A stretch of DNA of 25,953 nucleotides from an uncultured archaeon (GTDB lineage: Archaea; Altiarchaeota; Altiarchaeia; IMC4; SCGC-AAA252-I15). Of this stretch, positions 6,602-25,577 are shown in pieces. The notes below the pieces were generated by a model, which saw nothing but the letters and a program-made list of their open reading frames with translations, was not told the origin of the DNA and did not search any database. The DNA lies in the NCBI GenBank assembly GCA_964587725.1, contig CAZPLO010000019.1, positions 1-25,953 of the forward strand. Reading direction: 5' to 3'. The translations under genes and the position numbers were made by a program. How positions within the stretch are numbered: the first letter of the stretch is position 1; every line of letters starts with the position of its first letter.

Positions 6602-6611
6602 GTGGTCGGCA

Positions 6612-7490
6612 TTGATTGACCCGTCCTTTCTGGAGCAGCTGAAGGAGCTGGACTTCATAGTCAGGCAGAGAGTCTCAAGCGTCTACGCCGGCGGCCGCCC
6701 GTCCATAAAGCACGGGAAGGGCATCGAGGTCGTCGACTACCGCGAGTACATGCCAGGCGACGACTTCCGGCTCATAGACTGGAAGGTGTACGCCCGCACC
6801 GAACGGCTGCATATACGGCGTTTCGAGGAGGAGAAGGATTTGATAGTGCATATCCTGGTGGACGCGAGCTCCAGCATGGACTTCACCACCGGAGGTATGC
6901 GCAAATTCGACTACGCCGGCAGCATCGCAGCGGGCTTCGGATTCCTGTCGGTCCACAACCACGAGAAATTCGCGGCCGCATTGTACGCGGAAACCATACG
7001 GGAGGTGACGCAGCCTAGGAAGAGCCGCGCCCATTTGTTCAACGTCATAGACCTGTTCAATCGCATAAAACTCAAAGGCGGCACCGACCTGGGGGTGTGC
7101 GCCGGCCAGTACGGGAAGATGATTAAATCCAAGTCCTTCACCATAGTAGTATCCGACTTCATAGAAGACATAGTGTCCGTGAAGGAGGGCATATACAGGA
7201 TGGCGAAGCACAGCAAGGAGATGATGCTTGTGCAGGTGCTGGACCCGTTGGAGCTGGATCTGGGGTGGGAGGGTGACATCAAATTCCAGGACCTGGAGAC
7301 CGACGACGTCAAAAGAACATACCTGAGTCCTGGCTTCAAGAGGGAGTACGCCTCTAAGATACGGGAGCACAACGCTACCATACAGGAGACGTGCATCGAA
7401 CTCGGCGTCGACTTCACCACCGTCACAACTGATACGCCCATATTCGACGCGTTCGTGCAGATAGTGGGCGGAGGTAGGAGGGGTGGCTGA
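6612..7490 (+). CDS. DUF58 domain (vWA-like) protein, 292 aa
   Basis: Motifs DYREYMPGDDFRLIDWKVYART, ILVDASSSM (MIDAS), VVSDF and QVLDP.E. TTG start after GGTGG. Confidence 0.92.
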   Translation: MIDPSFLEQLKELDFIVRQRVSSVYAGGRPSIKHGKGIEVVDYREYMPGDDFRLIDWKVYARTERLHIRRFEEEKDLIVHILVDASSSMDFTTGGMRKFDYAGSIAAGFGFLSVHNHEKFAAALYAETIREVTQPRKSRAHLFNVIDLFNRIKLKGGTDLGVCAGQYGKMIKSKSFTIVVSDFIEDIVSVKEGIYRMAKHSKEMMLVQVLDPLELDLGWEGDIKFQDLETDDVKRTYLSPGFKREYASKIREHNATIQETCIELGVDFTTVTTDTPIFDAFVQIVGGGRRGG

Positions 7491-9432: not shown

Positions 9433-11978
9433 CCACTGAAGCATTGAACGGGGATATGGTGTCCCAGATGGGGTTCAGCCAGCCCCTCTACCTGCTCCTG
9501 CTGGTTCCGCTGCTCGCATACCTCATATGGTATGTGCGCAAGGGCGGGTGGAGCAGGAAGAAGCTGGTTTTCCTCGCGGTCCGCACGCTCATGGTGGTGT
9601 TGGCTGTGCTGGCGCTCGCCTCCCCCGTGACGTACCGGAGCAGGGAGGTGGTGGAGGACGTTCCGCCTGTGACGGTGTTGGTGGATTCGTCCGCCAGCAT
9701 GGGCATGTACTCCGGCTCAAGGGAGCTGGGGCAGTTACTGTACAGTGAACTGCAGAGTGCGGTGGGGAACCTGAGCGACGAATCCGAAGTAAACATAGAG
9801 TATTTCTCGGAAGGCAACCGCACCGCGTTGGGGGACGCCCTCTACAACAACATGATAAAATACGGCGGCGAGCAGACGTCGGTGGTGTTGGTGAGCGACG
9901 GAAGAAGCAACCACGGCAGAAACCCCCTCGACATAGCTCGGGCGATGGCGGAGACAAACTCCACCGTATATGCGGTGGCTCCGGATAAGGGCGGGGAGGA
10001 CATATACATCAACTCTGTGATAGGAGATGGGAAGATACCGTCGAACATAGACTACGACCTCACCGTGGTGGTGGGCAGCACCGGGGCGCGGGGCGCATCG
10101 TATGAGCTGCTGGTGTACGTGGACGACATAAGGAAGTTCAACAAACGCTTCACCCAGGAGGAGCTGGAGAAGACCATACAGTTGAGTCTGAGGATGCAGG
10201 ATGTTGGAGTCCACGAAGTGCGTCTGGAGCTGGACGCCTCCGGGGATTCGTTCCCGGAGAACAACGCATACTATAAGACTGTGGAGGTGGTGGAGAAGCC
10301 GGAGATACTTGTTGTCACCTCCAACAGGAGTTCGCCGATGCTGCAGGTGTTGAACGAACTCTACGACGTCAAGGTAACCGGCAGGGTCGACAACGACTAC
10401 GGCCAGTACGCGGGCGTCATATTCGACAACGTCAACGCCAAAGACCTCCCCCGGGACAGGGTGAACAAGATTAAGAAATACGTGCTTGACGGCAACGGCG
10501 TAGCCTTCGTGGGCGGCAGAAACACCTTCGAATACGGCGGCTACAACAACAGCTTCATAGAGGGCATTCTTCCGGTAACAAGCACCGACAAGCCCACCGA
10601 ACGCAGGAGAGAGTTGGCGGTGGCGTTCCTAATAGACGTGTCGGAGAGCACAGAATACGGCATCGGCGAGGACTCCAAAATAGACGTGGAGAAGGCGCTG
10701 CTGCTGCGGATGCTCCGCACCCTCAACGCCAACGACTCCGTGGGGGTGATAGCGTTCAACACCCTCCCCTACTCGGTGTCCCAGCTCAGCCCGCTGGGGC
10801 CTAAGTTCACGGAGGTGGAGGACCGGGTGCTCCGGCTCAAGTTCGGCGGCGGAACCAAGCTGCTGCCCGCCATGGAGGCCGCCGACAGCATGCTGAGGGG
10901 CCAGACCGTCGACAAATACGTCATCATACTATCCGACGGCGTCATACAGGGGTCGCGGAGGGTACTGAACCTTAACAAGGCGGCTGAGATGCGGGACCGC
11001 GGCGTCGAAATATACGCGGTGGGCGTCGGATTCGACACCGACGAGGGGTTCATGCAGGAGCTCGCCCGCTCCGGAGGCGGCCAGTACTTCAAGTCCGAGC
11101 CGGGGGAGCGGCTTAAGGTGGTGTTCGGGGAGGCGGAGGACGAGAAGGACGCGGACAAGACCCCGGTGGTGTTGAGCGACGAATACCACTTCATAACCCG
11201 CAACCTCTTCGAATTGGAGAACGCGGGCGCGTCGGTGCAGGACTTCAACAAAGTCTACGAAAAGAACGTCGCGCAGATGCTGCTGTCGACGAAGGGCGGG
11301 AAGCCGGTGCTCACGGTGTGGCGGTTCGGCCTCGGCAGGGTGGCTGCGTTGACAACCGACAACGGCCTGGTGTGGAGTCCCGAGCTCATGAAAGTGGACT
11401 CCGGCAGGGTGGTTACGGGGATGACCAACTGGGTGATAGGCGACCTGGAGAAGGGGAAGGCAGTTCGTGTGAACGCGCCGGACGTCCACCTGGGAGACGG
11501 GGTCGAAGTAGCTGTCGTATCAGACAGCCAGCCCAGCCTCCAGGTGAGAAATTATGAGACGCTGGAGGAGCCGCAGGTGATGCTGACGCGCAACGGGCTG
11601 ATGACGTACTCTGGAGTATTCACTCCGCAGTCGCAGGGCTTCTACGGCGTCCGGGCGGTGGCGTCCGGGGAAGAGGACTTGGATGCGGCGGCCGTCAACT
11701 ACCCCCGCGAATACAACAGCCTCGGAGTCGACGAGGACACGCTGATGCGGGTCTCAGGCGTAACAGCTGGAAGAATGTACTCATCAGACGAAGTCGGGGC
11801 GGTGGTGTCCGACGTGCTGGAGAAGGCCCGTGAGAAGGCTGTGAAGGAGTTCCGCGAGCCCGTAGACCTGTGGACGTATTTCGCGGCCGCGGCGTTGATA
11901 ATCTACTTCCTAGACGCGGCGGCCAGGAGGATAATGGTGTTTCTGCGGAGGAATCAGTCCTCTACGCAGCCGACGTAG
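9429..11978 (+). CDS. Double-vWA membrane protein with a glutamine-amidotransferase-like domain, 849 aa (the start may instead be ATG at 9456)
   Basis: N-terminal TM hairpin (LALASP), MIDAS motifs VLVDSSASM and FLIDVSEST, two SDG motifs, GNGVAFVGG...ILPV, WRFGLGRVAALTTD and a C-terminal TM helix. Confidence 0.88.
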   Translation: MTTEALNGDMVSQMGFSQPLYLLLLVPLLAYLIWYVRKGGWSRKKLVFLAVRTLMVVLAVLALASPVTYRSREVVEDVPPVTVLVDSSASMGMYSGSRELGQLLYSELQSAVGNLSDESEVNIEYFSEGNRTALGDALYNNMIKYGGEQTSVVLVSDGRSNHGRNPLDIARAMAETNSTVYAVAPDKGGEDIYINSVIGDGKIPSNIDYDLTVVVGSTGARGASYELLVYVDDIRKFNKRFTQEELEKTIQLSLRMQDVGVHEVRLELDASGDSFPENNAYYKTVEVVEKPEILVVTSNRSSPMLQVLNELYDVKVTGRVDNDYGQYAGVIFDNVNAKDLPRDRVNKIKKYVLDGNGVAFVGGRNTFEYGGYNNSFIEGILPVTSTDKPTERRRELAVAFLIDVSESTEYGIGEDSKIDVEKALLLRMLRTLNANDSVGVIAFNTLPYSVSQLSPLGPKFTEVEDRVLRLKFGGGTKLLPAMEAADSMLRGQTVDKYVIILSDGVIQGSRRVLNLNKAAEMRDRGVEIYAVGVGFDTDEGFMQELARSGGGQYFKSEPGERLKVVFGEAEDEKDADKTPVVLSDEYHFITRNLFELENAGASVQDFNKVYEKNVAQMLLSTKGGKPVLTVWRFGLGRVAALTTDNGLVWSPELMKVDSGRVVTGMTNWVIGDLEKGKAVRVNAPDVHLGDGVEVAVVSDSQPSLQVRNYETLEEPQVMLTRNGLMTYSGVFTPQSQGFYGVRAVASGEEDLDAAAVNYPREYNSLGVDEDTLMRVSGVTAGRMYSSDEVGAVVSDVLEKAREKAVKEFREPVDLWTYFAAAALIIYFLDAAARRIMVFLRRNQSSTQPT

Positions 11979-12262
11979 CCGCGTTTCGGAGAATACACTA
12001 GGCCCTTCTCGGTCAGCTCATTGAGTATGCCCTTCAACTCATCCCCGCTGATGTCTTCCACGCCAGCCTCCTCCTCGAGGCTGTTGAGTTTAAGGCTGTG
12101 TAGGCGGTGGATTATGTTGTACACTGTCTGGCGTTTCCCAGCACGCTCCAGGCGAGTCTCATCAGACCACTTCCTCTGCTTCAGAGAATCGAACAGCTCT
12201 TTTGTTCTTTCAGAATCAGATGAACCCAGTTTAGACTTCCGCTCCCCCTTCAAACCAACCAC
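11954..12262 (-). CDS. Small winged-helix-like protein, 102 aa
   Basis: The C-terminal ILNELTEKGLVYSPKRGYV fits the wH wing pattern (as in RPA32/MCM C-terminal domains). TTTTAAT lies 26-32 nt upstream. It overlaps the convergent vWA gene by 25 bp. Confidence 0.65.
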   Translation of the reverse strand: MVGLKGERKSKLGSSDSERTKELFDSLKQRKWSDETRLERAGKRQTVYNIIHRLHSLKLNSLEEEAGVEDISGDELKGILNELTEKGLVYSPKRGYVGCVED

Positions 12263-12295
12263 CGGAATATACTATACGGTGTCTCTGATTAAAAG

Positions 12296-12505
12296 CTACC
12301 TTATCCTCCTAATCCAGCTGAGGTGTTCGTTGATGCTGTGGAGGTAGAAGATGACCAGTATAAGCAATACTATTATGACGCCGGAGGCTATCAGCAGTAT
12401 GAGGCCTATCCTCGCCTCTATTCCGCTGAGCAGCGACATATCCTCCTGGGCGGACGCAGCCGTCGCCAGGAAGGCCAACAGTGTGAAAAAAATCCCCTTG
12501 TTCAC
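12296..12505 (-). CDS. Small membrane protein (signal-peptide-like segment + 1 TM), 69 aa
   Basis: MNKGIFFTLLAFLATAASA resembles a signal peptide, followed by a long hydrophobic helix and a basic C-terminus. GGTGG RBS and TATA-like TTTTTAAG lie upstream. Confidence 0.7.
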   Translation of the reverse strand: MNKGIFFTLLAFLATAASAQEDMSLLSGIEARIGLILLIASGVIIVLLILVIFYLHSINEHLSWIRRIR

Positions 12506-12518
12506 CTTTCCCCACCGG

Positions 12519-12546
12519 CATGATATTAAATGTCATGACTTAAAAA
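12519..12546 (-). promoter_or_regulatory. TATA box with an adjacent operator-like palindrome
   Basis: CATGATATT-A-AATGTCATG at 12519-12537 (8/9 arm symmetry) sits next to minus-strand TTTTTAAG at 12539-12546. Confidence 0.45.
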
Positions 12547-12553
12547 CCATATC

Positions 12554-14671
12554 CTACCTGCTCTTCAGCCGCGTCATCTTCAGGCAGACTCCGTCCCTGC
12601 ACACACTGCTCTTGAACACCCCCTTGTTCGGGGGCAGCTGAACCCTGATTTCCTCATCCTCGGCGGTGGAGTATCTCTTGGTGTCGGGACTTCGTCTCCG
12701 CACGTTGGCGGCAGGTGCCACGTCCACTTCCTGGTCGTAGTATACGCGGTGGAGGTGCTCCGTCTTAAGCCTCTGCCGCCCGCTCATCTTCCACACGTAG
12801 TAGAGGAGGAGAACCAGTATGAATATCATCACCGCCGCTATGAGGAAGATTATCACGTACTCCGCCTTCACCGCATCCAAGGCCTCCCTGAGTCCTGAAA
12901 GATCCGGTACCGCCACTTCGGATTCCTTTTCAGTCTCTATCCCCAGCTCGCTTCTGAGCGCCTCCACCGTGGCGCGGGCCCTCTCCGTGTGCTCGCCGTA
13001 GCCTATGAAGGAGTAGTGTTTCTCTGCGAGTTCAGCGTGCTCCAGAGCCTTTTCAAGGTCTCCAGCGTGGGCGCTTTCGTTGGCGAGGGAGAACTCCCTG
13101 CTGGCGTTCTCCTCAATCCACGCCTCAGCCTCCTCTATGATTGATTCCGCGTCCTCCGCGGCGGACTGGTCGTTCAGCTGCGGCGCCGAATACTTCTGCT
13201 CCGCAATGTGCGCGTACCTGCTGGCGTTCAGGTAGTCCCGGAAGTCCAGCGCCTTCCGGGCGTTGAACAGCGCCAGCTCCGCCTCCGCCCGCAGGTCTTC
13301 CACGCGGGCGCTGGTGTCGCCCAGCCTGTCTATGCGGTTGATGCACTCAGACACCCTCTCTATCACCCCCAATTCAGAGTACAGTTCCCTGGCCTGCCGG
13401 AACTTCTCCACAGCCTCTTCTGGATTGGAGGTGCTTATCCGTATGGCGTCCTGGTAGAGTTCGTCCGCCCGCACCATCTTAGCGTAAGAGGTGGTCCTGT
13501 ACACGGTGACGTTCTTCTTCGACCCGGCGATTATCTCGCTGAAGCCGCCGCCTTCGATGTCCGCTGCCAAAACGAATCCCACGTAACCGTATGGTCCGCT
13601 CCTCCACCTCTGCACGCCGTCTCTGTCGAACACGTATATGTGTGAGGAACCGGCTATCACCTCCGGCAGTCCGTCGCCGTCCAAGTCGCCGGTGGTTACC
13701 GAATACGTTCTGGAGAACTCGGTCCCCCCCGTCCACTTCAGCGCGCCGTCGCTTTTGAAGGCGTAGACTTCGTTCGCCACCCCTATTACCTCGCTCATGT
13801 TGTCGCCGTCGAGGTCTGCGGCTGCCACGTCCACCACGTAGTCCGCTATAACCCTGGTGTCCTCCCACAGCAGGCTGCCGTCGCCGTCCAACACGTACAG
13901 GTTCGGGTACGTGCCCGCAACCACCTCCGGGAGGCCGTCGCCGTCCACGTCTCCCGTCGCAAGCGACAGCACCGCCCCCTGGGTCTGGTACTGCCACATA
14001 AGCCTGTTTTCGCTCAGGACGTAAATGCTGGATTCATGGTCCATGGCGTTCTGACAGGCTTTGTAGGAGCTTTTGGCCCGGTATATGAGCCCTACTATGA
14101 CCTCGTCGACGCCGTCTCCGTTGAGGTCCTCCACCAGGATGCTCGACGGCAGGCTGTCGCCGACGCTGTACTTCCACAGCTCCTCCTTCTGGGTGCCGTC
14201 GACCGCGTACACGAAACCGCTTCTGCTGCAGGAACTCTTATCATATGTTGTGAATGCGATGTCCGTGCGGCCGTCTCCGTCGAGGTCTCCGCTTCTGACG
14301 TCGTATACGCCGTCGCGGGTGCTGTACCTCCAGATTCTGTCCCCCGCCGAGTCGAACACGTATATGTCGGAGTGTCCGGAAACCACTTCGCCGCTGCCGT
14401 CGCTGCCCAGATCGTCTATCCACACCGTGTTTATGTAGGAGCCCACGTCCTTCCGCCACAGCAATTCCCCGTCAGCGCCCAGCAGGTATGCGCTGCCGTC
14501 GCTGCTGCCGGAAGCAGCAACCTCCAGCTCGCCGTCTCCGTCCACGTCCCCGACTGTTACGCCGGAGAGTATCTCCTTGGTGCTGTAGTCCCACACCAAA
14601 CCCATGTACTCCTCCGCAGCCGACGCCTGGACCACCGTCAGAAGCACCAGCAGGACCACATAACCTCTCAT
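12554..14671 (-). CDS. Cell-surface FG-GAP/VCBS-like repeat beta-propeller protein with helical stalk, TM anchor and cytoplasmic tail, 705 aa
   Basis: Signal peptide, then eight D-[LVI]-[DNEG]-x-D/G-G-like Ca-binding repeats alternating with G..LW motifs. An Ala/Glu-rich helical region precedes the TM segment YVIIFLIAAVMIFILVLLLYYVW. Confidence 0.85.
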   Translation of the reverse strand: MRGYVVLLVLLTVVQASAAEEYMGLVWDYSTKEILSGVTVGDVDGDGELEVAASGSSDGSAYLLGADGELLWRKDVGSYINTVWIDDLGSDGSGEVVSGHSDIYVFDSAGDRIWRYSTRDGVYDVRSGDLDGDGRTDIAFTTYDKSSCSRSGFVYAVDGTQKEELWKYSVGDSLPSSILVEDLNGDGVDEVIVGLIYRAKSSYKACQNAMDHESSIYVLSENRLMWQYQTQGAVLSLATGDVDGDGLPEVVAGTYPNLYVLDGDGSLLWEDTRVIADYVVDVAAADLDGDNMSEVIGVANEVYAFKSDGALKWTGGTEFSRTYSVTTGDLDGDGLPEVIAGSSHIYVFDRDGVQRWRSGPYGYVGFVLAADIEGGGFSEIIAGSKKNVTVYRTTSYAKMVRADELYQDAIRISTSNPEEAVEKFRQARELYSELGVIERVSECINRIDRLGDTSARVEDLRAEAELALFNARKALDFRDYLNASRYAHIAEQKYSAPQLNDQSAAEDAESIIEEAEAWIEENASREFSLANESAHAGDLEKALEHAELAEKHYSFIGYGEHTERARATVEALRSELGIETEKESEVAVPDLSGLREALDAVKAEYVIIFLIAAVMIFILVLLLYYVWKMSGRQRLKTEHLHRVYYDQEVDVAPAANVRRRSPDTKRYSTAEDEEIRVQLPPNKGVFKSSVCRDGVCLKMTRLKSR

Positions 14672-16539: not shown

Positions 16540-17412
16540 ATGGCCTGGTTGGATGAGCTCCGGAGCCTGTTCAGGGAGGCGGTGAAGTCCACGGTTGAGC
16601 CGGAGGTGGGCGTAATCTTCTCCTCCGGAGTGGACTCCGCGCTCGTGGCGTACGTGGCGTCCCGCTTCTCCAAAGTCACCGCATACAATGTGGGGTTGAA
16701 GGGGTCGGAGGACATGGAGTACGCGAAGAGGATGGAGTCCGAGGCTCCTTTCAGGATAGAATACGTTGAACTCTCCGTCAAAGACGTTGAATCTGTTATC
16801 CGGGAGGTCCTGTCCGTGTGGCAGAACCCCAACCCGGTGGACGTGGGCGTGGCGGTGCCCATGTACTGCGCCTCCAAGGCGGCTTCGGAAGACGGTTTGA
16901 AGGTGGTGTTGTGCGGGCAGGGGGGTGACGAACTCTTCGGAGGGTACTGGCGTTACCTGGAGGCGCTGGCATCCGACGGACCGGAGGAGGTTGAGGCGTT
17001 GATGGAGCGCGACTGGGAAAACGCATACGAAGACAACCTCGACCGCGACATGGCTGTGAACAGGGCGAACGGCGTGGAGCTGCGGTTCCCCTTCCTCCAT
17101 GAACCGTTCTCCCGTTACGTCAGGGACATGCCGTTGGAGCTGAAGATACGGGAGGGCGCGGAGGACGTGTACTGCGACGTCATAGACGGTAGAAGGTATG
17201 CCCGGAAGTACGCTTTGAAGAAGCTGGCGTTGTCTGAGGGGCTGCCGGCGTACATAGTCAACAGGCGGAAGAAGGCCGCCCAGTACGGCAGCGCGTCCCA
17301 GAAGGCGTTGGACAGGCTCGCGAGAAACCAGGGCTACAAGAAGAAGGCGGCTGAAGCCGGCAGGAAAGACTATCTCCAGATGTATTTGGAGGATGTTCTG
17401 GAGTCTGTTTAG
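16540..17412 (+). CDS. Asparagine synthase C-terminal (ATP-pyrophosphatase) domain protein lacking the glutaminase domain, 290 aa
   Basis: PP-loop GVIFSSGVDS, VVLCGQGGDELFGGY, NLDRD, ELRFPFL and RRKKAAQYGS. There is no N-terminal MCG Ntn domain. Confidence 0.88.
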   Translation: MAWLDELRSLFREAVKSTVEPEVGVIFSSGVDSALVAYVASRFSKVTAYNVGLKGSEDMEYAKRMESEAPFRIEYVELSVKDVESVIREVLSVWQNPNPVDVGVAVPMYCASKAASEDGLKVVLCGQGGDELFGGYWRYLEALASDGPEEVEALMERDWENAYEDNLDRDMAVNRANGVELRFPFLHEPFSRYVRDMPLELKIREGAEDVYCDVIDGRRYARKYALKKLALSEGLPAYIVNRRKKAAQYGSASQKALDRLARNQGYKKKAAEAGRKDYLQMYLEDVLESV

Positions 17413-17424
17413 TGTCAAAAAAGG
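17410..17424 (+). repeat. Left inverted repeat TAGTGTCAAAAAAGG
   Basis: Perfect reverse complement of 25181-25195. It begins with the TAG stop of the asparagine-synthase-domain gene. Confidence 0.9.
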
Positions 17425-17457
17425 TTCAGTGTTAAGATAGTGTAACTTACCCTAGTA

Positions 17458-17491
17458 TATTTAAAGCTACTACTAATCTAATACTGAGGTG
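17458..17491 (+). promoter_or_regulatory. Promoter and RBS of the signalling operon
   Basis: TATTTAAA at 17458-17465 and GAGGTG at 17486-17491, before ATG 17500. Confidence 0.6.
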
Positions 17492-17499
17492 GTTGGCGC

Positions 17500-18987
17500 A
17501 TGTCCGTGCTTAGCGGTTGGCCTCTAGTGACTACGGTAACTAACGTACTGGGGTTTGTGACCTGGGGTTTCCCCTTGTTGTCCCTGGCCGTACTGTCCTA
17601 CTGCATAGAATATTATACGAGGTTCAAGACGCGGTGGAAACTCTATGTCGTATCCACTCTGCTCGCGTTAACCCATCCGCTGGTGACGGCGTATGATTAC
17701 TGGTTGCACGGGGACAGCATCTCCGAGCACCTGATGGTGGCGAACACGTTTCTGCTGTCGGGCCTGCTGGTAGCGGCGTACGCTTCTCTGCAACTTATTA
17801 AGTTCCAGAAAATAGGTCTTGGAAAAACTAAGTACACCGTGCAGGTGCTTGCGGTATCCAGCATATTCGTTCCACTGGCAGCTGGCATTGTGGGGGTGGT
17901 GTCGTACCTGGTATCCTGGCATCTCATAGCCTATAACCTCTCCGCGTCGGCGATGATATTCATCTTCCTGGCAATGGGCAAGCTCACACAAAACTACATA
18001 CCACGGTACCGTGTATTGGCCTACAGCAGCGCCAGACTCGGCTCCATACTGCTGCTGGTGGACCCCATATTGCGGAACTACGTCTACATTACCGGCCTCT
18101 CACTGGGTGCGAAATACGGGATGCGGTTGATAGGCGTCCTGACGCAGTGTTTCGCAATAATACTGCTGCTGGTGACGGTGGTTATGCTGATATTGGAGGC
18201 CCAGACAAGGGGCATACACCTCATACCGTCGGACGAGAAGAAAACAGACAAGAAGCCGATGAAGTACCGTCTGAAGAAAGGCTACGGATACATACTTCAG
18301 GAGGAGAATCCGTCGGTGAGCACGGAGGTGTTCACTGAATACGTAACCCACCACCACCACGGCCTCATGTTCACCCGAGAGCAGCCATCCCGTATTAGGC
18401 AGTACTACGGGTTGAGGACCACCCCGATACTGTGGATGACCAACGCGAAGACGGAGGAAAAGTCGGTGAAGCCGACGGATTTGAACCGGATGCTGTACAT
18501 TATACGGGATTTCATACGGTTCGACACGGACTCCATAATACTGATACAGCGGCTGGATTACCTGATTACGGAGAACGACTTCAACACGGTGTTGAAGTTC
18601 ATACACCGCCTGAACGACGTCATAATGGAGAGCAAATGCATTTCGTTGTTGTCCATTGACCCGTCCACGCTCACCAGGGAGCAGCTGGCCCTCCTGACCC
18701 AGGAGTTGGAGGACCTCACACACGCGGACCAGGTTAGGCTGGGGGAGCCTTTATATTCTGTCCTTCTATTTGTATACAGTGAAAACAAGAGGAGGAAAAC
18801 CCCCTCTTTCAAAAACGTCACCAAAAACTTCTCAATAACCAAGACCACGGCCCGCAAGAGAATCTACGAGCTGGAGTCGAAGGGTTTGTTGAGGATACTC
18901 CAGAAGGGGAGGTACAAGTTTCTGGAGGTGACCGAGGCGGGGAAGAACATGGTGCGGAGCCCGGCCAGTATGATGGGAGGTGATTGA
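17500..18987 (+). CDS. 7TM - DUF835 (inactive KaiC-like) - winged-helix HTH protein, 495 aa
   Basis: About seven hydrophobic segments in residues 1-232. DUF835-type motifs are GLMFTREQP...TPILWMT and IILIQRLDYLITENDFNTVLKFIHRLND. The C-terminal wHTH reads ITKTTARKRIYELESKGLL...LEVTEAG. Confidence 0.82.
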   Translation: MSVLSGWPLVTTVTNVLGFVTWGFPLLSLAVLSYCIEYYTRFKTRWKLYVVSTLLALTHPLVTAYDYWLHGDSISEHLMVANTFLLSGLLVAAYASLQLIKFQKIGLGKTKYTVQVLAVSSIFVPLAAGIVGVVSYLVSWHLIAYNLSASAMIFIFLAMGKLTQNYIPRYRVLAYSSARLGSILLLVDPILRNYVYITGLSLGAKYGMRLIGVLTQCFAIILLLVTVVMLILEAQTRGIHLIPSDEKKTDKKPMKYRLKKGYGYILQEENPSVSTEVFTEYVTHHHHGLMFTREQPSRIRQYYGLRTTPILWMTNAKTEEKSVKPTDLNRMLYIIRDFIRFDTDSIILIQRLDYLITENDFNTVLKFIHRLNDVIMESKCISLLSIDPSTLTREQLALLTQELEDLTHADQVRLGEPLYSVLLFVYSENKRRKTPSFKNVTKNFSITKTTARKRIYELESKGLLRILQKGRYKFLEVTEAGKNMVRSPASMMGGD

Positions 18988-19351
18988 GACGGCCAAGATA
19001 CTCGTCGTGGACGACGAGCCGGACATGGTGGACATAGTCGAGCTTACGCTGACCCAGGCGGGGTTCGAAGTGTCCAAGGCCTACGGCGGCAAGGAGTGCC
19101 TGGAGAAGGCGTCCAAGGAAGACTATGACCTTATAATACTTGACATCCGCATGCCCGGCATGGACGGGTGGGAGACGTTGAGGAAGCTCAAGGAGAAGAA
19201 AATCACCGACCGCGCCAGGGTTATAATCCTGACGGTTGAGAAGGGGCCAGGCGTGGAGATATTCGGACTTCAGGATGTGGTCTCAGACTACATCACCAAG
19301 CCGTTCGACCGCGAGAAACTAATCAAGCACGTGAAGAAAGCGTTGATATGA
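18980..19351 (+). CDS. Stand-alone response regulator receiver (CheY-like), 123 aa
   Basis: ILVVDDEP, LIILDIRMPGMDG (phospho-acceptor Asp), IILT and YITKPF. It overlaps both neighbours. Confidence 0.95.
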   Translation: MIETAKILVVDDEPDMVDIVELTLTQAGFEVSKAYGGKECLEKASKEDYDLIILDIRMPGMDGWETLRKLKEKKITDRARVIILTVEKGPGVEIFGLQDVVSDYITKPFDREKLIKHVKKALI

Positions 19352-22300
19352 TGAAGTCTCCACCCGAGGACGCCGGGCTCAGTGGGGGGGAGCTGCTGCG
19401 CGTGTTGGATGAACTGCGAGATTCAGTGTTCAGAATAGATTCTGAAGGCGTCGTAACATACGTCAACGACGCCGCATGCCGCGTCACCGGCTACTCCCGG
19501 GAGGAGATTGTCGGAAAACCGTTCGCCGAATTCCTGGCGCCGGAGGAAATGGACTCTATTACAGAGAAGTTCAGCCGTGAGATGGGCGGCGAGGAAATAG
19601 GGCCCTACATTGTCACCACAATCGACAAGAAAGGGGATAGAAGAAGGTTCAGGATGTCCACCCTCCCCTTCACATCCGACGGGGAGGTTGTGGGTAAAAT
19701 CGGCGTAGCCCATGAAATAACCGAACAGGAAAAAAAAGAAGAACTGCTGCGTTACCACAGCCGTTTCAAAGACCTTATCACCGCGTTGTCAACGCACTTC
19801 ATAAACCTTTCGACGGATGAGATAGACGGCGGTATAAACTACGCCCTCCAGGCCATCGGAGAGTTCACCGGCGTGGACAGAAGCTACCTGATTCTGGTTT
19901 CAGAAGACCGGGAGACCCTAACCACCACCTACGAATGGTGTGCGGAAGGTGTGAAAAGCTTCAGCGAGAGAACAACCAATGTTCCCGTGGACATCTTCCC
20001 CTGGCTGGCTGAAAAGCTCAGGGAAGGGGAGGCAATATACATACCCCTGGTTTCAGACCTGCCCCCCGAAGCCGAGGCAGAGAAAGATATTTTCAGGTCC
20101 GAAGGCACCAAGTCTGTGGTTGTGGTGCCGTTAATAACTTCTGGAGAGATACTCGGGGCTGTGGGCTTCGACTACGTGAAGGAGGATACGGTGTGGTCTG
20201 AAGGGTCAATATCCCTGCTGAAGATTGTGGGGGAGATGCTGGTCAACGCGTTGGAGAGGAAGCGGATGGAAAAGGCGTTGATGGCGAAGGAGAAGGAGAA
20301 GCTTCTACTTGCGGAAAACACCAACGACATCGTGTGGACCACCGACATGGACGGGAATTTCCTGTACGTCAGCCCTTCAGCAGGGAAAATACTCGGCCAC
20401 AGACCGGACGAGCTCACAGGGAAATCATGTTTCGAATTCATGACCCGGGAGTCCGCTGAACGGGCTCTCAAACTCAGGGACATCTTCCAGGGGCCGGAGG
20501 CGGACGACGTGCCGATTATTGAACTGCACTATCTCGACAGCGAAGGCCGCCCAGTGCCGTTTGAGGTCTCCGTCTCCCTGGTCTGCGACGAAAAGGGGGT
20601 TCCGGCGGAGGTAATAGGGGTGTCGAGAGACGTATCGGAGCGTAAAAAAGCGGAGGAGGCGCTGCGTGAGAGCGAGGAGAAATACAGGAGCATACTTGAC
20701 CAGGAGACGGAGCTGGTGTGCAGGTTCACCCCGGAGTTGAAGCTCACATTCGTTAACGAAGCATACTGCCGATTCTTCGGCAAATCCAGGGAGGAACTCA
20801 TAGGCTCCACCCAGTTGGATCACATACCAAATGGGGAGCACGATGCTCTGAAAAAGAATCTGAAGAAGAGGATAAGGCCGGGGGAACTCGTCACATTGGA
20901 GCACACTGACGTGAGACACGACGGCGAACCCCGCATTCTGGAATGGAGGAGGACCGGGGTGTTCGACGACGAAGGGAAGCTGGTGGAGTTTCAGTCGACG
21001 GGCATAGACATAACCGAGCTCCGGGAAACAGAGGCGGCGCTGCGCGACAGCGAAGAACAGTTCAGGGCGTTGGCGGAGCAGTCTCCCAACATGATATTCA
21101 TCAACCAGGGCGGAAAGATAGTGTACGCCAACAGCCAGTGCGAGGAAGTGATGGGGTACACTAAAGGAGAATTCTACAGCCCCGGATTCGATTTCAGAAG
21201 CCTGATTGCCCCAGAGTACAGGGACATGGTAGAATCAAACTTCAAGAGGCACATGTCTGACAGGGAAGTGAAGCCGATGGAGTACGCCGTCGTCACCAAA
21301 GACGGGCGGAAGCTAGACACCCTGATAACCACCCGGCTGATAAACTACGGGGGTGAGAAGGCCATATTGGGGGTGGTGACCGACATCTCCGCCGTCAAGG
21401 AGGCGGAGAAGGCGCTGCGTGAGAGCGAACAGAAGTTCAGAAGCATATTCGAACAGTCTAAAGACGGTATAGTCCTGGTGGACGAGGAAGGCGGCATAAT
21501 AGGCTGGAACAGGGCCCAGGAGCGGATAACGGGGGTGAAGAAAAAGGATGTTCTGGGCAGGCCCCTGTGGGGGATACAGTCCAGAATCAACGCCCCCGGC
21601 GACAACGGAGCCCGTTCCATCGAAGAACTCAAAACTGCAGTACTCAAGTCATTAAAAACCGGGAAAGCACCCTGGTACGGCAAACTCCTGAGGCAGAGTT
21701 TCAGGAGGTCCGACGGCTCGGTGAAAACATTGGAGGTCACCACGTTCCCGATAAAAACCGGAAAAGGGTTCATGGCGGGCAGCGTAATCCGTGACGTAAC
21801 AGAGGATGTGAAATCCGAGGCGGCGTTGCGCGTGAGCGAGGAGAAATACAGGAGTCTAGTGGACAACGCATTGGTGGGCATATACAGGACAACCTTCAAA
21901 GGAGATGTGCTCTACGTCAACAAGGCGCTGTCCAACATGTTCGGGTTCAAGTCGCCAGAGGAAATGATGGCGGAAAACGTTGTCGCCAGGTACAGGAACC
22001 CGGCGGACAGAAAACGGATGCTCCAGCGGCTCCGGAAAGAAGGTAGGGTTCCGGGCTTCGAGACCGAGGTGCTGGCCAAAAAAGGCGACGTGAAAAACGT
22101 CATCCTCAGCGCTTCCGCGGAGGGGGACGTCATATCGGGGATGATAATGGACGTTACTGCCTTCAAGGCCGCCGAACAGGAGCTCCGCATAAGTGAAAGC
22201 CGCCTCCGCAGCGCGGTGGAGAGCATGCCATTCGACCTCTTCTTCCTCGGGGAAGACCGCCGCTACGTGCTTCAGAACAGTGCATGCAGAAGACACTGGG

Positions 22301-25164
22301 GGCGCATAATCGGTAAGAAGCCGGAGGACATAGCAACCACCAGAGAGAACCTCAAGTTGTGGAGGGAGAACAACCGCCGCGCATTCAACGGCGAAATCGT
22401 GGAAGGGGAGGTGTCGTTAGACGTTAAGGGCGAGGAAAGGCACTTCCACAACATCATAGCCCCGGTTGAAGTGGACGGTAAAGTCAAGGGCATACTCGGA
22501 GTCAACATAGACGTAACAGGCCGGAAGAAGGCGGAGGAGATGCTGCGGGAGAGCGAGGAAAGATACAGGGGGTTGCTGGAGTCCCAGAAAGACCTTATCG
22601 TGCGGGTGGACACTGAAAACCGATTCACCTTCGTGAACAACGCATACTGCCGGAAGTTCGGAAAGATGCGGAATCAACTTCTGGGGAAGAAGTTCACCCC
22701 CCTGGTGCACAAGGACGACCTCCCGGCTACCCTTAAAGCCATGGAGAAACTGAAGAAATCCCCCTACCGTGCGACCATGGAGCAGAGGGCTAAGACCGTG
22801 GACGGGTGGAGGTGGCTGGAGTGGGAGGACTACGCCATACGGGACGATGAAGGCCGCATAGTGGAGGTTCAGGGTGTGGGCCGTGACATCACAGACCGTA
22901 AGCTTGCCGAGCAGGCTCTCAAGGCTTCTGAGCGGAGATACAGGACCATGATAGACGCCCTCGGCGACGCCATACACCTGGTGGGCAGGGATTTGAGGAT
23001 AATGCTCGCCAACAAGACGCTGAAGAAATGGAACCGTAAGCTGGGCTTGAAGACCAAGGTGGAGGGCGAGAAAATCTTCAGCGTCTACCCGTTCCTGCCC
23101 AAAAAAGTCCGGAAAGAATACACGCAGGTTTTCAAGGAAGGCAAGACCCTTGTGACCCGGGAGGTGAACAAGGTGGGGAAAAGGGAGTTCACCACCGAAA
23201 CCCGGAAGATACCTGTTTTAGACGGTAAAAAAGTGGTGCGGGTAATCACCGTGGTGAGGGACATAACCCAGAGGGAGCGGGCTGAGGAGGCGCTGCGGGA
23301 GGCCAAGGAGTTCTCCGAGAACATCGTCGAAACCGCAAACGCCATAATAGTGACTGTCGACTCCAGGCAGAGGATAACCACGTTCAACCAGTACGCCGAG
23401 TCGCTTACCGGATACGTTAAAGACGAGATTATGGGCAAGAAGTGGACCACGCAGTTCATACCGCGGGGTCGCAGGAAAGAGGTGAATCGTCTGTTCAAGA
23501 ATGTCCTAAGAAAACGGATAAAAGACGTTACACACGAAAATCCCATACTCGCCAAAGACGGCAGGGAGAAGATAGTGAAGTGGAGCAATACGGTGTTGCT
23601 GGACCAGGGCAACAATCCAGTGGGGATGCTGGCTATAGGGGTGGATGTCACCGAAGCTAGAAGAGCAGAGGAGAGTCTGAGGGACAGCGAAGAACGGTAC
23701 AGTACTCTTTTCAAGACGGCGACGGACATGATAGCCATCCACGACATGCAAGGAGGATTCATAGACGTCAACCAGAACTTCTGCGGCACAATCGGCTACA
23801 GCAGGAAGGAGCTGCTTTCCATGAACATCAGGGCGTTGGCTGCCCCGGGGAAGGCCAAGACAGCCAAGCCCAGGATTAAGCAGATTAAATCCGAGGGGAA
23901 GGCGGAGTGGGAGAGCCAGCTGAAGCGCAAGGACGGTTCACTCATCGACATAGAATTCCACAGCGTACTCTCCAGCTACAGGGGCGAAGACGTAGTGTAC
24001 TCGATACTCCGCGACATTTCAGAGAGGAAGAATGCGGAGCAGGAGCTGCTGGCGATTAAAACGCATTTGGAGGCGGTGTTGGACGGCATCAGCGAGTCCA
24101 TCGTGGTGCTGGACAAAAAATACAATGTCATCAGCTACAACCGCGCCTTCCAGAGGTGGGTGGGCAGGCCGAAGGCCGACCTCCGCGGCGGCAAATGCTA
24201 CGACATCATACACGGCTTCGACAAATCCTGCAGGAAATGCGTGATACGCGACGTCTTCAAGTCCGGGGAGCCGTCGGAGTCCGTCCACTACCACCAGGGC
24301 AAGAGGGGTCGGGTATACCATGAAACCCGGGCGTATCCGATACTGAAGGACGGGGAGATAGAGCACGCCATATACGTGTTCCGCGACGTCACCGAACGGG
24401 AGAGGATGAAGGAGAAGCTCCGCGACAACTATGAGCAGCTGATGAAGGCGAACGAGGAGCTGCGGAACCTGGACAAGATGAAGACCGAGTTCCTGTCCAT
24501 AGCGTCGCACGAGCTCAGGACGCCGCTGGCGATAATCAAGGGCTACGCCGACATACTGGCTTCGGAGGACCTGGGGGCGTTGAACAAGCGGCAGAAGGAC
24601 AAGATGCAGAGGATAGGCGAGAACGCCAAACAACTGGACCGGCTGGTGAACAACATCCTCGACCTCACCAAAATGGACGCCGGGGAACTGCACGTTAAGA
24701 AGACCAGGTTCTCTTTTAAGCGGCTGGTGGATGAGGTGGTGTCCGACCTCACCCACCTGGCGGAGGCCAAGAAGGTGAAGCTGAAGACCAGGGTCCGTTC
24801 AAAGTCCAAGATACTCGCCGACAGGATGAGGTTGAAGCAGCTGCTGGTCAACTGCGTCGACAACGCAGTGAAATTCACCCCAGAAGGCGGCGAGGTGACG
24901 GTCTCCGTGAGCGAGACAGACGACGTCGTCAGGGTGAAGGTGTCGGACACCGGCATAGGCATGGGGAAGAAGGATTTGGAGAACATTTTCAGGCGTTTCT
25001 ACCAGATAGACTCCTCCTATCAGAGGCAGTACAAGGGTGTCGGACTGGGCCTAGCCATATGCAAGAGGATAGTGGACTTACACGGTGGGGAAATAGATGT
25101 GAAGAGCAGGAAGGGGAGGGGCACCACCATCATCATAACCCTGCCGTTGAACGGGAAAACCTGA
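19348..25164 (+). CDS. Giant cytoplasmic sensor histidine kinase: PAS-GAF-(PAS)x11-HisKA-HATPase_c, 1938 aa
   Basis: Twelve PAS/PAC units end in D[IV][TS]-type motifs plus coiled linkers, and the GAF domain carries YEWCAEG. Kinase boxes are ASHELRTPL (H), NCVDNAVKF (N), DTGIG (G1), FRRFYQ (F) and GVGLGL (G2). No TM segments. Confidence 0.95.
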   Translation: MMKSPPEDAGLSGGELLRVLDELRDSVFRIDSEGVVTYVNDAACRVTGYSREEIVGKPFAEFLAPEEMDSITEKFSREMGGEEIGPYIVTTIDKKGDRRRFRMSTLPFTSDGEVVGKIGVAHEITEQEKKEELLRYHSRFKDLITALSTHFINLSTDEIDGGINYALQAIGEFTGVDRSYLILVSEDRETLTTTYEWCAEGVKSFSERTTNVPVDIFPWLAEKLREGEAIYIPLVSDLPPEAEAEKDIFRSEGTKSVVVVPLITSGEILGAVGFDYVKEDTVWSEGSISLLKIVGEMLVNALERKRMEKALMAKEKEKLLLAENTNDIVWTTDMDGNFLYVSPSAGKILGHRPDELTGKSCFEFMTRESAERALKLRDIFQGPEADDVPIIELHYLDSEGRPVPFEVSVSLVCDEKGVPAEVIGVSRDVSERKKAEEALRESEEKYRSILDQETELVCRFTPELKLTFVNEAYCRFFGKSREELIGSTQLDHIPNGEHDALKKNLKKRIRPGELVTLEHTDVRHDGEPRILEWRRTGVFDDEGKLVEFQSTGIDITELRETEAALRDSEEQFRALAEQSPNMIFINQGGKIVYANSQCEEVMGYTKGEFYSPGFDFRSLIAPEYRDMVESNFKRHMSDREVKPMEYAVVTKDGRKLDTLITTRLINYGGEKAILGVVTDISAVKEAEKALRESEQKFRSIFEQSKDGIVLVDEEGGIIGWNRAQERITGVKKKDVLGRPLWGIQSRINAPGDNGARSIEELKTAVLKSLKTGKAPWYGKLLRQSFRRSDGSVKTLEVTTFPIKTGKGFMAGSVIRDVTEDVKSEAALRVSEEKYRSLVDNALVGIYRTTFKGDVLYVNKALSNMFGFKSPEEMMAENVVARYRNPADRKRMLQRLRKEGRVPGFETEVLAKKGDVKNVILSASAEGDVISGMIMDVTAFKAAEQELRISESRLRSAVESMPFDLFFLGEDRRYVLQNSACRRHWGRIIGKKPEDIATTRENLKLWRENNRRAFNGEIVEGEVSLDVKGEERHFHNIIAPVEVDGKVKGILGVNIDVTGRKKAEEMLRESEERYRGLLESQKDLIVRVDTENRFTFVNNAYCRKFGKMRNQLLGKKFTPLVHKDDLPATLKAMEKLKKSPYRATMEQRAKTVDGWRWLEWEDYAIRDDEGRIVEVQGVGRDITDRKLAEQALKASERRYRTMIDALGDAIHLVGRDLRIMLANKTLKKWNRKLGLKTKVEGEKIFSVYPFLPKKVRKEYTQVFKEGKTLVTREVNKVGKREFTTETRKIPVLDGKKVVRVITVVRDITQRERAEEALREAKEFSENIVETANAIIVTVDSRQRITTFNQYAESLTGYVKDEIMGKKWTTQFIPRGRRKEVNRLFKNVLRKRIKDVTHENPILAKDGREKIVKWSNTVLLDQGNNPVGMLAIGVDVTEARRAEESLRDSEERYSTLFKTATDMIAIHDMQGGFIDVNQNFCGTIGYSRKELLSMNIRALAAPGKAKTAKPRIKQIKSEGKAEWESQLKRKDGSLIDIEFHSVLSSYRGEDVVYSILRDISERKNAEQELLAIKTHLEAVLDGISESIVVLDKKYNVISYNRAFQRWVGRPKADLRGGKCYDIIHGFDKSCRKCVIRDVFKSGEPSESVHYHQGKRGRVYHETRAYPILKDGEIEHAIYVFRDVTERERMKEKLRDNYEQLMKANEELRNLDKMKTEFLSIASHELRTPLAIIKGYADILASEDLGALNKRQKDKMQRIGENAKQLDRLVNNILDLTKMDAGELHVKKTRFSFKRLVDEVVSDLTHLAEAKKVKLKTRVRSKSKILADRMRLKQLLVNCVDNAVKFTPEGGEVTVSVSETDDVVRVKVSDTGIGMGKKDLENIFRRFYQIDSSYQRQYKGVGLGLAICKRIVDLHGGEIDVKSRKGRGTTIIITLPLNGKT

Positions 25165-25180
25165 TTAACAGCATTCTAAC

Positions 25181-25195
25181 CCTTTTTTGACACTA
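25181..25195 (-). repeat. Right inverted repeat (CCTTTTTTGACACTA on the plus strand); its T6 tract may double as the kinase operon terminator
   Basis: Perfect reverse complement of 17410-17424, starting 16 bp after the kinase stop. Confidence 0.9.
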
Positions 25196-25241
25196 TATTG
25201 GCCTGTACCTTAACCTATGGGACATCAAATAATAACATGTA

Positions 25242-25577
25242 ATGGATTTGATGGCCCTGGTGGACGAGGCAGAGTTTGCGGCCGACATACGAAGGCACAT
25301 AGAGGAGTGCGACCGCATGTACTCCGAAATATACGGGTGCTGCAGCGACGCGCCGGAGTGCAACACCTGCAAGAAGCTGCTGAAGATGGGGTTCCTGCTG
25401 ACGCCCGCGAACCTGCCGGAGATATGCATCATGCACTGCGAGCGCTGGAGGCTGCCGGAGGAGGTGGAGCCGCTGCCGGAGAAGCCGGTTCCCCTGCCGG
25501 CAGCCCCGCACTTGGACGTGTGGCCGGGGTTCTCCACGGGAGGTTTGAAAAATGAACGTGTGCCTCACAGACTATAA
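25242..25577 (+). CDS. Cys-rich hypothetical protein, 111 aa
   Basis: Protein-like composition with C-x9-CC-x5-CxxC...C-x3-C and a Pro-rich tail. It fills the gap upstream of the HAD gene and overlaps it by 26 bp. Confidence 0.5.
   Translation: MDLMALVDEAEFAADIRRHIEECDRMYSEIYGCCSDAPECNTCKKLLKMGFLLTPANLPEICIMHCERWRLPEEVEPLPEKPVPLPAAPHLDVWPGFSTGGLKNERVPHRL

Follow-up and report, generated by a model that had tools for sequence, protein, structure and literature searches.

Organization of the Three-Gene Locus

The DNA studied here, a stretch of 25,953 nucleotides (nt) referred to as the window, is the whole of contig CAZPLO010000019.1 (C19), one of the 48 contigs of a 1.56-Mb metagenome-assembled genome (MAG) of an uncultured member of the Altiarchaeota that is 92% complete. 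It contains an operon of three genes: gene A, whose product joins seven transmembrane (TM) helices (7TM), a DUF835 domain and, at the C-terminus, a winged helix-turn-helix (wHTH); a gene for a stand-alone receiver (REC); and a gene for a very large soluble histidine kinase (Table 1). We propose that the gene A product is a membrane-tethered, probably autoregulated transcription factor that receives REC as an input in trans, and we judge this whole chain to have an even chance of being right. The domain architecture, the folds, the gene order and overlap, a conserved cis-element and the interface through which control would pass were computed. An earlier note on this DNA had listed the protein under the range 17500–19351; the features it described are present, and the range holds two genes, gene A and REC. 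Its claim that gene A, REC and the giant kinase are translationally coupled agrees with the gene borders. The stop codon of gene A (18985–18987) lies inside the start region of REC, which has its GTG at 18980, resulting in an overlap of 8 nt, and the REC stop and the kinase start overlap by 4 nt in a common ATGA (19348–19351).

To model the gene A product we used AlphaFold2 with an alignment (A1) of 28 of its 30 full-length relatives, the truncated P0015 and P0032 being omitted. The model has a mean pLDDT of 83.8 and consists of seven long helices (residues 8–40, 46–70, 75–103, 109–131, 136–166, 171–198 and 202–237), an alpha/beta domain (255–403) and a domain with the order H-H-H-beta-beta-H (416–486). 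A Kyte-Doolittle scan gave five strongly and two moderately hydrophobic segments. The external loops of the membrane domain are 3–4 residues long, and its conserved loops (about 40–46, 102–111 and 160–170) are basic. Because Lys and Arg cluster in loops 41–45, 104–108 and 161–170, the topology is probably N-out/C-in, which would place DUF835 and the wHTH inside the cell. Screening of the TM domain against Pfam did not reveal a family recurrent among the 28 members at E ≤ 0.1, the matches being at chance level and confined to one member each (e.g., Cytochrom_B558a), nor a profile match to named 7TM receptor families, including 7TMR-DISM. The ESM Atlas returned unnamed clusters only, all at ≤0.88, and Foldseek with the whole model found for the TM part only a rhodopsin chimera with a low TM-score. 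Having almost no external loops, the domain would either sense within the membrane or serve as an anchor.

The middle domain matches Pfam DUF835 (PF05763) at residues 269–403 with an E-value of 3.5e-33 and 114.7 bits, against a cut-off of 33.1, and the same family is matched in all 28 members. Foldseek searches of the PDB with this domain retrieved FlaH (4yds), PH0284 (2dr3; root-mean-square deviation 3.2 over 164 columns), KaiC (8fwj) and RecA. A Walker A motif ([AG]xxxxGK[ST]) was found in none of the 28 members within residues 240–420. The DUF835 domain of gene A is thus, as judged from its predicted fold and the missing P-loop, an inactivated KaiC-like (iKaiC) domain and predicted to be catalytically dead, as had been claimed before. 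The HHHH run to which the earlier note drew attention was located at residues 284–287, but it is only partly conserved: H284 is present in 25 of the 28 members, position 285 is variable, and H286 and H287 are present in 16 and 17 members, respectively. The family motif at this place is H-x-[HY]-[HY]-G, conserved in part, of which HHHH is the version found in gene A.

For the C-terminal domain, the best Pfam wHTH match is DUF6293_C (E 1e-3; 19.9 bits against a cut-off of 27), followed by HTH_36 (E 7e-3); at E ≤ 0.1, DUF6293_C is matched by 25 of the 28 members, HTH_36 by 16 and MarR_2 by only 5. Profile searches of the PDB with this domain gave weak wHTH matches only, with E-values of at least 0.007. 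A separate model of residues 405–495 (pLDDT 86.4) has the same H-H-H-beta-beta-H order, and Foldseek retrieved MepR (3eco) as its best match (E 1.6e-4, TMq 0.79). Further matches to wHTH proteins of the MarR family are PefR, MarR, BldR and RbkR; there are 20 at E ≤ 1e-3, several of them solved on DNA, and those to MepR, PefR, MarR and BldR have E-values of 1.6e-4 to 1e-3 and TMq values of 0.7–0.79. The family alignment shows that the wHTH is among the best-conserved parts of the gene A protein, and that its putative recognition helix, ITKTTARKRI, is basic and nearly invariant. By its modelled fold the domain is clearly a MarR-like wHTH, with sequence-profile scores that lie below the curated thresholds, and the reading of the C-terminus as an HTH therefore stands. 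The presence of 7TM, DUF835 and C-terminal wHTH in one polypeptide, claimed from the letters alone, is borne out by the Pfam DUF835 match, the AlphaFold2 helices and the MarR-like fold, and we regard this architecture as practically certain.

REC matches Response_reg (PF00072) with an E-value of 3.7e-29. Residues D11, D12, D55, T85 and K107 are invariant in all 13 REC orthologues, as is the entire stretch 85–99, which neither of the other two REC domains in the window genome contains. Of the three proteins, REC shows the strongest conservation, with identities of 57–79% vs 45–76% for gene A. Its sequence identifies it as a CheY-like stand-alone receiver with the full set of phospho-site residues. 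The kinase matches HisKA (E 3.8e-18) and HATPase_c (E 3.7e-35), and its translation contains the H-box SHELRTP, features by which it is recognized as a classical HisKA histidine kinase. Hydropathy analysis of the kinase did not reveal a convincing TM segment, its single 19-residue peak (1.77) falling inside the GAF match. The length of its sensor part is very variable between loci.

Table 1. Features of the operon and its flanks. Positions are those of the window, except in the last row, where they follow the names of related loci.
Feature	Position	Strand	Basis
Operator-like unit 1, core AGTG-N7-AGGT; begins within the stop codon that ends the Asn-synthase-like gene upstream	17409..17427	+	Regular expression; position weight matrix (PWM), 23.8 bits, second-best site of the genome
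Operator-like unit 2, 17 bp after unit 1	17426..17444	+	Regular expression; PWM, 21.2 bits
Putative TATA box, an A/T stretch ~35–44 nt before the ATG	17456..17465	+	Sequence; similar boxes at the same place in orthologues
Shine-Dalgarno-like GAGGTGGT	17486..17493	+	Sequence; GGTGGTT conserved 6–8 nt before the start in orthologues
Gene A, 7TM-DUF835-wHTH protein, 495 aa	17500..18987	+	Open reading frame (ORF), Pfam, homologues, AlphaFold2 model
Seven-TM domain, residues 8–237; very short external loops, conserved basic cytoplasmic loops; no Pfam match	17521..18210	+	Hydropathy, alignment, AlphaFold2, Pfam
DUF835 domain, residues 255–403; RecA/KaiC/FlaH fold without P-loop; predicted REC-docking surface 287–343	18262..18708	+	Pfam, AlphaFold2, Foldseek, complex prediction
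MarR-like wHTH, residues 416–486	18745..18957	+	AlphaFold2, Pfam, PDB profile search, Foldseek
REC gene, stand-alone receiver, 123 aa, GTG start at 18980; D11, D12, D55, T85, K107, invariant 85–99	18980..19351	+	ORF, Pfam, alignment
Soluble histidine kinase, 1938 aa: ~11 PAS, GAF, HisKA, HATPase_c	19348..25164	+	ORF, Pfam
Inverted operator-like unit, 14 nt past the kinase stop	25178..25196	-	PWM, 24.5 bits, best match of the genome
Inverted copies after the kinase in related loci	L012:13557; L014:6401; L015:14313; L016:6832-6872 (three overlapping); L017:14255		PWM scan

Conservation of the Gene Set within One Altiarchaeota Family

A search of 5.8 billion proteins yielded the 30 full-length relatives of gene A, and all source names among them point to the Altiarchaeota, the homologues that carry one being labelled Candidatus Altiarchaeota or Altiarchaeales. 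In a set of 61 genomes from the phylum, a full-length orthologue was found, as one copy per genome, in 12 of the other 20 genomes that belong to the same GTDB family. The 40 genomes from other Altiarchaeota families have none and gave only two partial matches.

We analyzed linkage in 12 Altiarchaeota loci (L008–L019) taken from a collection of species representatives. REC is located directly downstream of gene A in all 12, with its start within ~30 nt of the gene A stop, and a kinase core follows REC in 8 of them. Of the other four, L013 and L018 are on contigs that end 0.6–0.8 kb past REC, so that the presence of a kinase cannot be judged there. The conservation of the neighbourhood, proposed earlier as a check, is thereby supported. 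Next to the operon, 6 to 7 other loci carry the same Asn-synthase-like and beta-CASP genes as the window. Downstream of REC, L008 encodes an aminotransferase, then a small DUF7504/KaiC-like protein (12126–12644, 1.3 kb downstream) and a PMT_2 protein.

Four further DUF835 genes are present in the window genome, on contigs C7 (10062), C26 (9703), C11 (31617) and C38 (5963), corresponding to L002–L005. Two encode TM-DUF835 proteins, one a protein with four CBS domains followed by DUF835, and one a protein with an unassigned N-terminus; none of the four has a wHTH and none adjoins a REC gene. Outside the phylum, shorter TM-DUF835-wHTH genes encoding 336–343 aa were found in MAGs of Theionarchaea and Thermococci (L020:8402-9711, L021:1690-3000 and L022:8630-9939). 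In all three, a separate 93-aa hydrophobic ORF abuts or overlaps the 5′ side of the gene, resembling a membrane domain in two genes, and tblastn did not reveal a REC gene nearby. A weak match to 7TMR-DISM_7TM (E 0.007) was obtained only for a 93-aa ORF of one such outgroup locus.

Predicted Docking of REC on the DUF835 Domain

One complex was predicted, consisting of residues 245–495 of gene A (alignment A1) and REC (alignment A2), a check that the earlier note had also suggested. The prediction places REC on DUF835 with an ipSAE of 0.66 (0.70, 0.66 and 0.65 for the runs), the best of three controls reaching 0.00; in calibration, 58 of 80 solved complexes came up to the ipSAE mark, as did 2 of 110 mismatched pairs, counts that serve here as a rough guide. 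The runs have at least 87% of the contacts in common, with a partner pLDDT of at least 90. On REC, the interface consists of residues 83, 87–92, 94–96, 98–99 and 101–105, which lie in the beta4-alpha4 loop, in alpha4 and in beta5, with the aromatic switch residue Y104 among them. On DUF835, it consists of residues 287–288, 296–297, 300, 306–311, 319–321, 334, 337–338, 341 and 343. Invariant positions make up 13 of the 17 interface residues of REC vs 21 of 106 elsewhere (p 8e-6), and 10 of the 19 DUF835 interface residues are conserved at ≥90% vs 24 of 130 elsewhere (p 0.002). As read from the paralogue alignment, some of these residues, such as T307, K321 and D337, are confined to the orthologous group.

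We regard a functional link between REC and DUF835 as highly probable, and direct docking by the alpha4-beta5 face, as modelled, as moderately so. It could be argued that the two genes are merely co-transcribed, with REC acting on another target or as a phosphate sink and gene A encoding an independent one-component regulator. Stand-alone receivers are generally known often to have distant partners, as passages of a 2018 census also indicate (PMC5847659); the interface residues of DUF835 are family-wide, and mismatched pairs did occasionally pass the ipSAE mark. We nevertheless consider such mere co-transcription quite improbable, since the pair is kept, overlapping or abutting, in all 12 loci even where the kinase is missing, all three docking controls scored 0.00, the invariant alpha4 motif of REC maps onto the predicted interface, and P0132 (see below) is a fusion of DUF835 with a REC of this subtype.

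The DUF835-wHTH Module and Its REC Fusions

Word-based homologue searches reached close relatives only. A full HMMER scan with residues 250–495 against 1.84 billion cluster representatives (50%-identity clusters) gave 2857 matches at E ≤ 1e-3, the 150 best of which were re-aligned. Among these 150, DUF835 is followed by a wHTH in 114, always at the extreme C-terminus (median of 2 residues after the match); 31 contain DUF835 only, and 5 are of another kind. Their N-terminal extensions range from 0 to 1416 residues, and at least five hydrophobic segments are present in only 3 of the 114 DUF835-wHTH proteins, which are of the Altiarchaeota type. Pfam was run on 10 of the 150, picked for length and variety rather than at random; the domains located N-terminal to the module in these were (PAS)n, GAF-PAS, dCache, 4HB_MCP-HAMP and REC-PAS-GAF-PAS. 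As judged from these alignments, DUF835-wHTH is a widespread C-terminal module that takes the place of the HisKA-HATPase or MCP signalling domains of other receptors, and in many archaea it would form the output end of sensors that are cytoplasmic or membrane-bound.

With a hidden Markov model of the REC alignment, 22 of the 150 best representatives were seen to carry a REC at the N-terminus, ahead of DUF835, and 20 of these also have the wHTH. In all 22 fusions (15 of which were aligned for display) REC is N-terminal to DUF835, and by sequence REC is thus a recurrent input to DUF835-wHTH. The fusions constitute a Rosetta-stone argument for the link between REC and DUF835. P0132 is a direct REC-DUF835 fusion, and its REC carries the IFGLQDVV..Y..KPF motif of the window REC.

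The flow of information might also run the other way. The 7TM-DUF835 protein would then serve at the membrane as a sensor or scaffold, capturing REC and thereby tuning the two-component pathway, e.g., by sequestering REC, by shielding REC~P or by recruiting the soluble kinase to the membrane, and its wHTH would be constitutive or serve for dimerization only. The docking prediction says nothing on direction, the kinase is soluble and could need a membrane partner, and the REC-less paralogues reveal DUF835 as a generic module placed after sensor domains such as CBS and TM. Set against this are the position of REC, which is that of an input in every one of the fusions, the strong conservation of the wHTH, and the presence of a dedicated conserved DNA motif on the flanks of the operon, described below. 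We therefore regard a reversed flow as unlikely.

A Candidate Operator at Both Ends of the Operon

The 87-nt spacer 5′ of gene A contains two operator-like units in tandem, with the core AGTG-N7-AG(G/T)(T/G), directly upstream of the TATA-like box. Tandem pairs with the same 17-bp spacing are present in L008, L009, L011, L012 and L014. A unit matching the regular expression lies within 110 nt of the gene A start in 9 of the 12 evaluable loci (L019 is without upstream DNA), a count that is circular in so far as the motif had initially been spotted by eye and the expression was written after viewing the upstream regions. As a check, the 1.56-Mb genome was scanned on both strands with a PWM built from the sites of other genomes only. 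Four matches scored ≥21 bits, three of which flank the operon; 20 block shuffles gave a mean of 0.1 and at most 1. The best match of the genome (25178–25196) falls in the stretch 25165–25200, which the earlier note had named as a possible target.

When the related loci were scanned at ≥15 bits, matches were found almost only at both ends of the operon, with one stray inside gene A of L017. An inverted copy is present right after the kinase in 6 of the 9 kinase-bearing loci, the window counted, and at the same threshold none is present in the kinase-less L008 and L009. The distance of this copy to the kinase stop is kept, and its distance to the next gene varies between loci. It might act in looping, as an antisense promoter, in control of the next gene or as a boundary element.

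Sites upstream of BRE (TFB-recognition element)/TATA are usual for archaeal activators such as EarA, according to passages in PMC13286277. The conserved AGTG-N7-AGKG repeat is located upstream of the TATA-like box of its own operon and recurs inverted after the kinase, which points to autoregulation. The wHTH of gene A is the only DNA-binding domain encoded in the operon, and whether it is this domain that binds the AGTG repeat is, in our estimate, evenly balanced.

A protein-protein or dimerization role of the wHTH has also to be considered, in which case the AGTG repeats would be bound by another factor or be remnants, such as old cassette ends. Winged helices can serve protein contacts, as illustrated by the matches to eS25 and to the winged-helix domain of ORC/Cdc6, the Pfam matches are sub-threshold, and inverted motifs at the two ends of an operon resemble terminal inverted repeats. 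The best fold matches, in contrast, are DNA-bound regulators of the MarR family, and the basic putative recognition helix hardly varies; the same flanking genes in 6 to 7 other loci argue for vertical descent instead of mobility, and no transposase lies inside. The probability that we assign to a wHTH that does not bind DNA is accordingly very low.

Two candidates were rejected. A palindrome, TAGTA-N10-TACTA, surrounds the TATA box; inspection by eye showed that it is not conserved in the orthologous upstream regions. The inverted motif copies as marks of a mobile cassette were discarded in view of the synteny of the flanking genes in 6 to 7 loci and the absence of a transposase.

At 18–21 bits, further motif sites are present in the genome at C34:1791-1809 (-), C4:5741-5770 (+), C21:13408-13426 (+) and C37:1433-1451 (+). 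Downstream of the C34 site are an A/T box and an ORF of 109 aa (1374–1703, -) with a signal-peptide-like start, and this ORF may belong to the regulon.

Proposed Mechanism

We propose that the gene A product is a membrane-tethered transcription factor in which 7TM is joined via a dead KaiC/RecA-like DUF835 domain to a MarR-like wHTH. The soluble, PAS-rich kinase would presumably phosphorylate the co-translated REC on D55. The alpha4-beta5 face of REC, including the switch residues T85 and Y104, would dock on the beta2-alpha2-beta3-alpha3 side of DUF835, presumably in a phosphorylation-dependent manner, and the docked REC would alter the DNA binding of a pair of wHTH domains, with a sign of regulation that we can only presume. 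DUF835 would thus couple two inputs to the wHTH, one from 7TM in cis and one from the kinase-controlled REC in trans. The likely DNA target would be the AGTG repeat at its own operon, resulting in autoregulation. This agrees with the interpretation given in the earlier note, which is supported overall, all evidence being computational; none of the three results named there as refuting it was obtained.

Several observations weigh against the model of a REC-controlled, DNA-binding membrane protein. L008 and L009 keep gene A and REC and have no kinase core nearby (by tblastn only for L009). All Pfam HTH matches of gene A (residues 426–486) are under the curated cut-offs. The complex was predicted with custom alignments, for which the calibration counts hold only roughly, its score is no measurement, and structure predictors also favour conserved surfaces. 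Moreover, G288, P296, R300, the TPxxW strand and F338 are also conserved in the four REC-less DUF835 paralogues; most of the DUF835 interface residues are kept there, so that this conservation is not peculiar to REC binding. Most REC fusions have PAS or GAF domains between REC and DUF835, so that direct contact is not implied in them. The upstream motif was not found at threshold in 3 of the 12 evaluable loci (L013, L015 and L018, the L018 match looking unrelated), and the downstream copy was not found by the PWM at ≥15 bits in 3 of the 9 kinase-bearing loci (L010, L011 and L019). Finally, another regulator could bind the AGTG repeat.

A broader proposal would be that DUF835 is an archaeal docking platform, on which REC~P, fused or free, binds via its alpha4-beta5 face and switches the attached wHTH; we put this forward tentatively and consider it rather doubtful. 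If true, many "output-less" REC-(PAS/GAF)n-DUF835 regulators and some stand-alone receivers would be DNA-binding response regulators, and the count of such regulators in archaea would be higher. The 7TM factor of the Altiarchaeota would, if the model holds, sum a membrane cue and the cytoplasmic cues of a kinase with 11 PAS domains, and would hold its own operon at the membrane via the operator copies at both ends.

Other Genes in the Window

Co-directional genes for a MoxR AAA+ ATPase, a DUF58 protein and two VWA (BatA-like) proteins are located at 5552–11978 (+), preceded by a gene for a DUF7502 protein. A 705-aa FG-GAP repeat protein is encoded on the opposite strand at 12554–14671. The operon is followed by a 111-aa Cys-rich ORF (25242–25577, +), relatives of which are present behind the kinase only in L017 and L011.

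Comparison with Known Systems

Stand-alone receivers of the CheY type act by docking, e.g., CheY on FliM or on archaeal CheF. REC of the window is likewise a single-domain protein with all phospho-site residues, and its predicted contact is made via the alpha4-beta5 face and Y104. Instead of a motor switch, REC is predicted to contact a dead KaiC-like domain within a membrane protein that would bind DNA. Archaeal signalling hubs made up of KaiC-like ATPases and of KaiC domains that are inactivated have reportedly been described by Makarova, Galperin and Koonin in 2017 (mBio), and gene A would resemble such hubs in having a P-loop-less domain of RecA/KaiC fold between sensor and output.

ToxR and CadC are bacterial membrane-bound one-component regulators with an N-terminal wHTH, one TM helix and a periplasmic sensor. 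As in these proteins, a winged helix would be held at the membrane in gene A, and sensing and transcription control would be combined in one polypeptide. The wHTH of gene A, however, is C-terminal and behind 7TM, a periplasmic sensor domain is absent, and a REC input is added; there is no homology beyond the wHTH fold. The likeness is an analogy, and gene A does not belong to this class. Foldseek with the whole model also retrieved Csa3 (CARF-wHTH) and Orc1/Cdc6 (ATPase fold plus winged helix), whose wHTH, like that of gene A, comes after an alpha/beta domain of the nucleotide-binding-like type. The TM-scores on the query are 0.14–0.19, and the likeness is one of layout, not of relationship.

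The closest known systems are found in the 2018 census by Galperin, Makarova, Wolf and Koonin, the main text of which has an entry for "DUF835 (iKaiC)" among the outputs of REC; the architectures given there are REC-DUF835 and REC-PAS-PAS-DUF835, and the proteins counted are 36, in Methanomicrobia and Thermoplasmata (PMC5847659). According to the same text, archaeal response regulators rarely have known DNA-binding outputs, ~40% are bare REC with unknown partners, most REC-only regulators are outside conserved neighbourhoods, and RR-HTH (response regulator-HTH) interactions remain to be shown (PMC5847659). Its passages on wHTH, winged and iKaiC domains do not tie a wHTH to DUF835, and "Altiarchae" is absent from the main text (PMC5847659). 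A literature search on DUF835/PF05763, with supplementary tables outside its coverage, surfaced only this paper, and searches on two-component systems of Altiarchaeota and on iKaiC with winged helix found nothing closer; CsmR/CirA, as described in passages of PMC13286277, is a different system.

Like the REC-DUF835 regulators listed in the main text of the census, the locus described here combines DUF835 with a REC input, and 20 of the 22 REC-bearing representatives end in the same wHTH. In the census REC-DUF835 proteins, both domains are on one polypeptide, whereas here REC is encoded by a separate coupled gene and DUF835-wHTH is fused to 7TM. The locus would work like the REC-DUF835 class without strictly belonging to it, its parts being on separate genes with an 8-nt overlap. 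The earlier note had considered the architecture poorly described. Measured against the main text of the census, this applies to the 7TM anchor, the split REC and the candidate operator, but not to DUF835-wHTH, which is widespread, nor to REC-DUF835, which was already in the 2018 census.

The REC-to-DUF835 logic is thus already known from the main text of the census. Our results suggest that DUF835-type regulators generally end in a wHTH that is missed by standard Pfam cut-offs, and they point to a way, open to testing, in which two-component signalling could reach gene control in archaea. The locus, which comes from an uncultured phylum, has parts that can be tested in vitro as soluble fragments. 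It provides a compact counter-example to the output-less archaeal receivers, in which the kinase, the REC surface, the docking site, the wHTH and a candidate operator can all be named. New relative to the main text of the census are the 7TM anchor, the split REC that acts in trans, the candidate operator and the restriction to one Altiarchaeota family.

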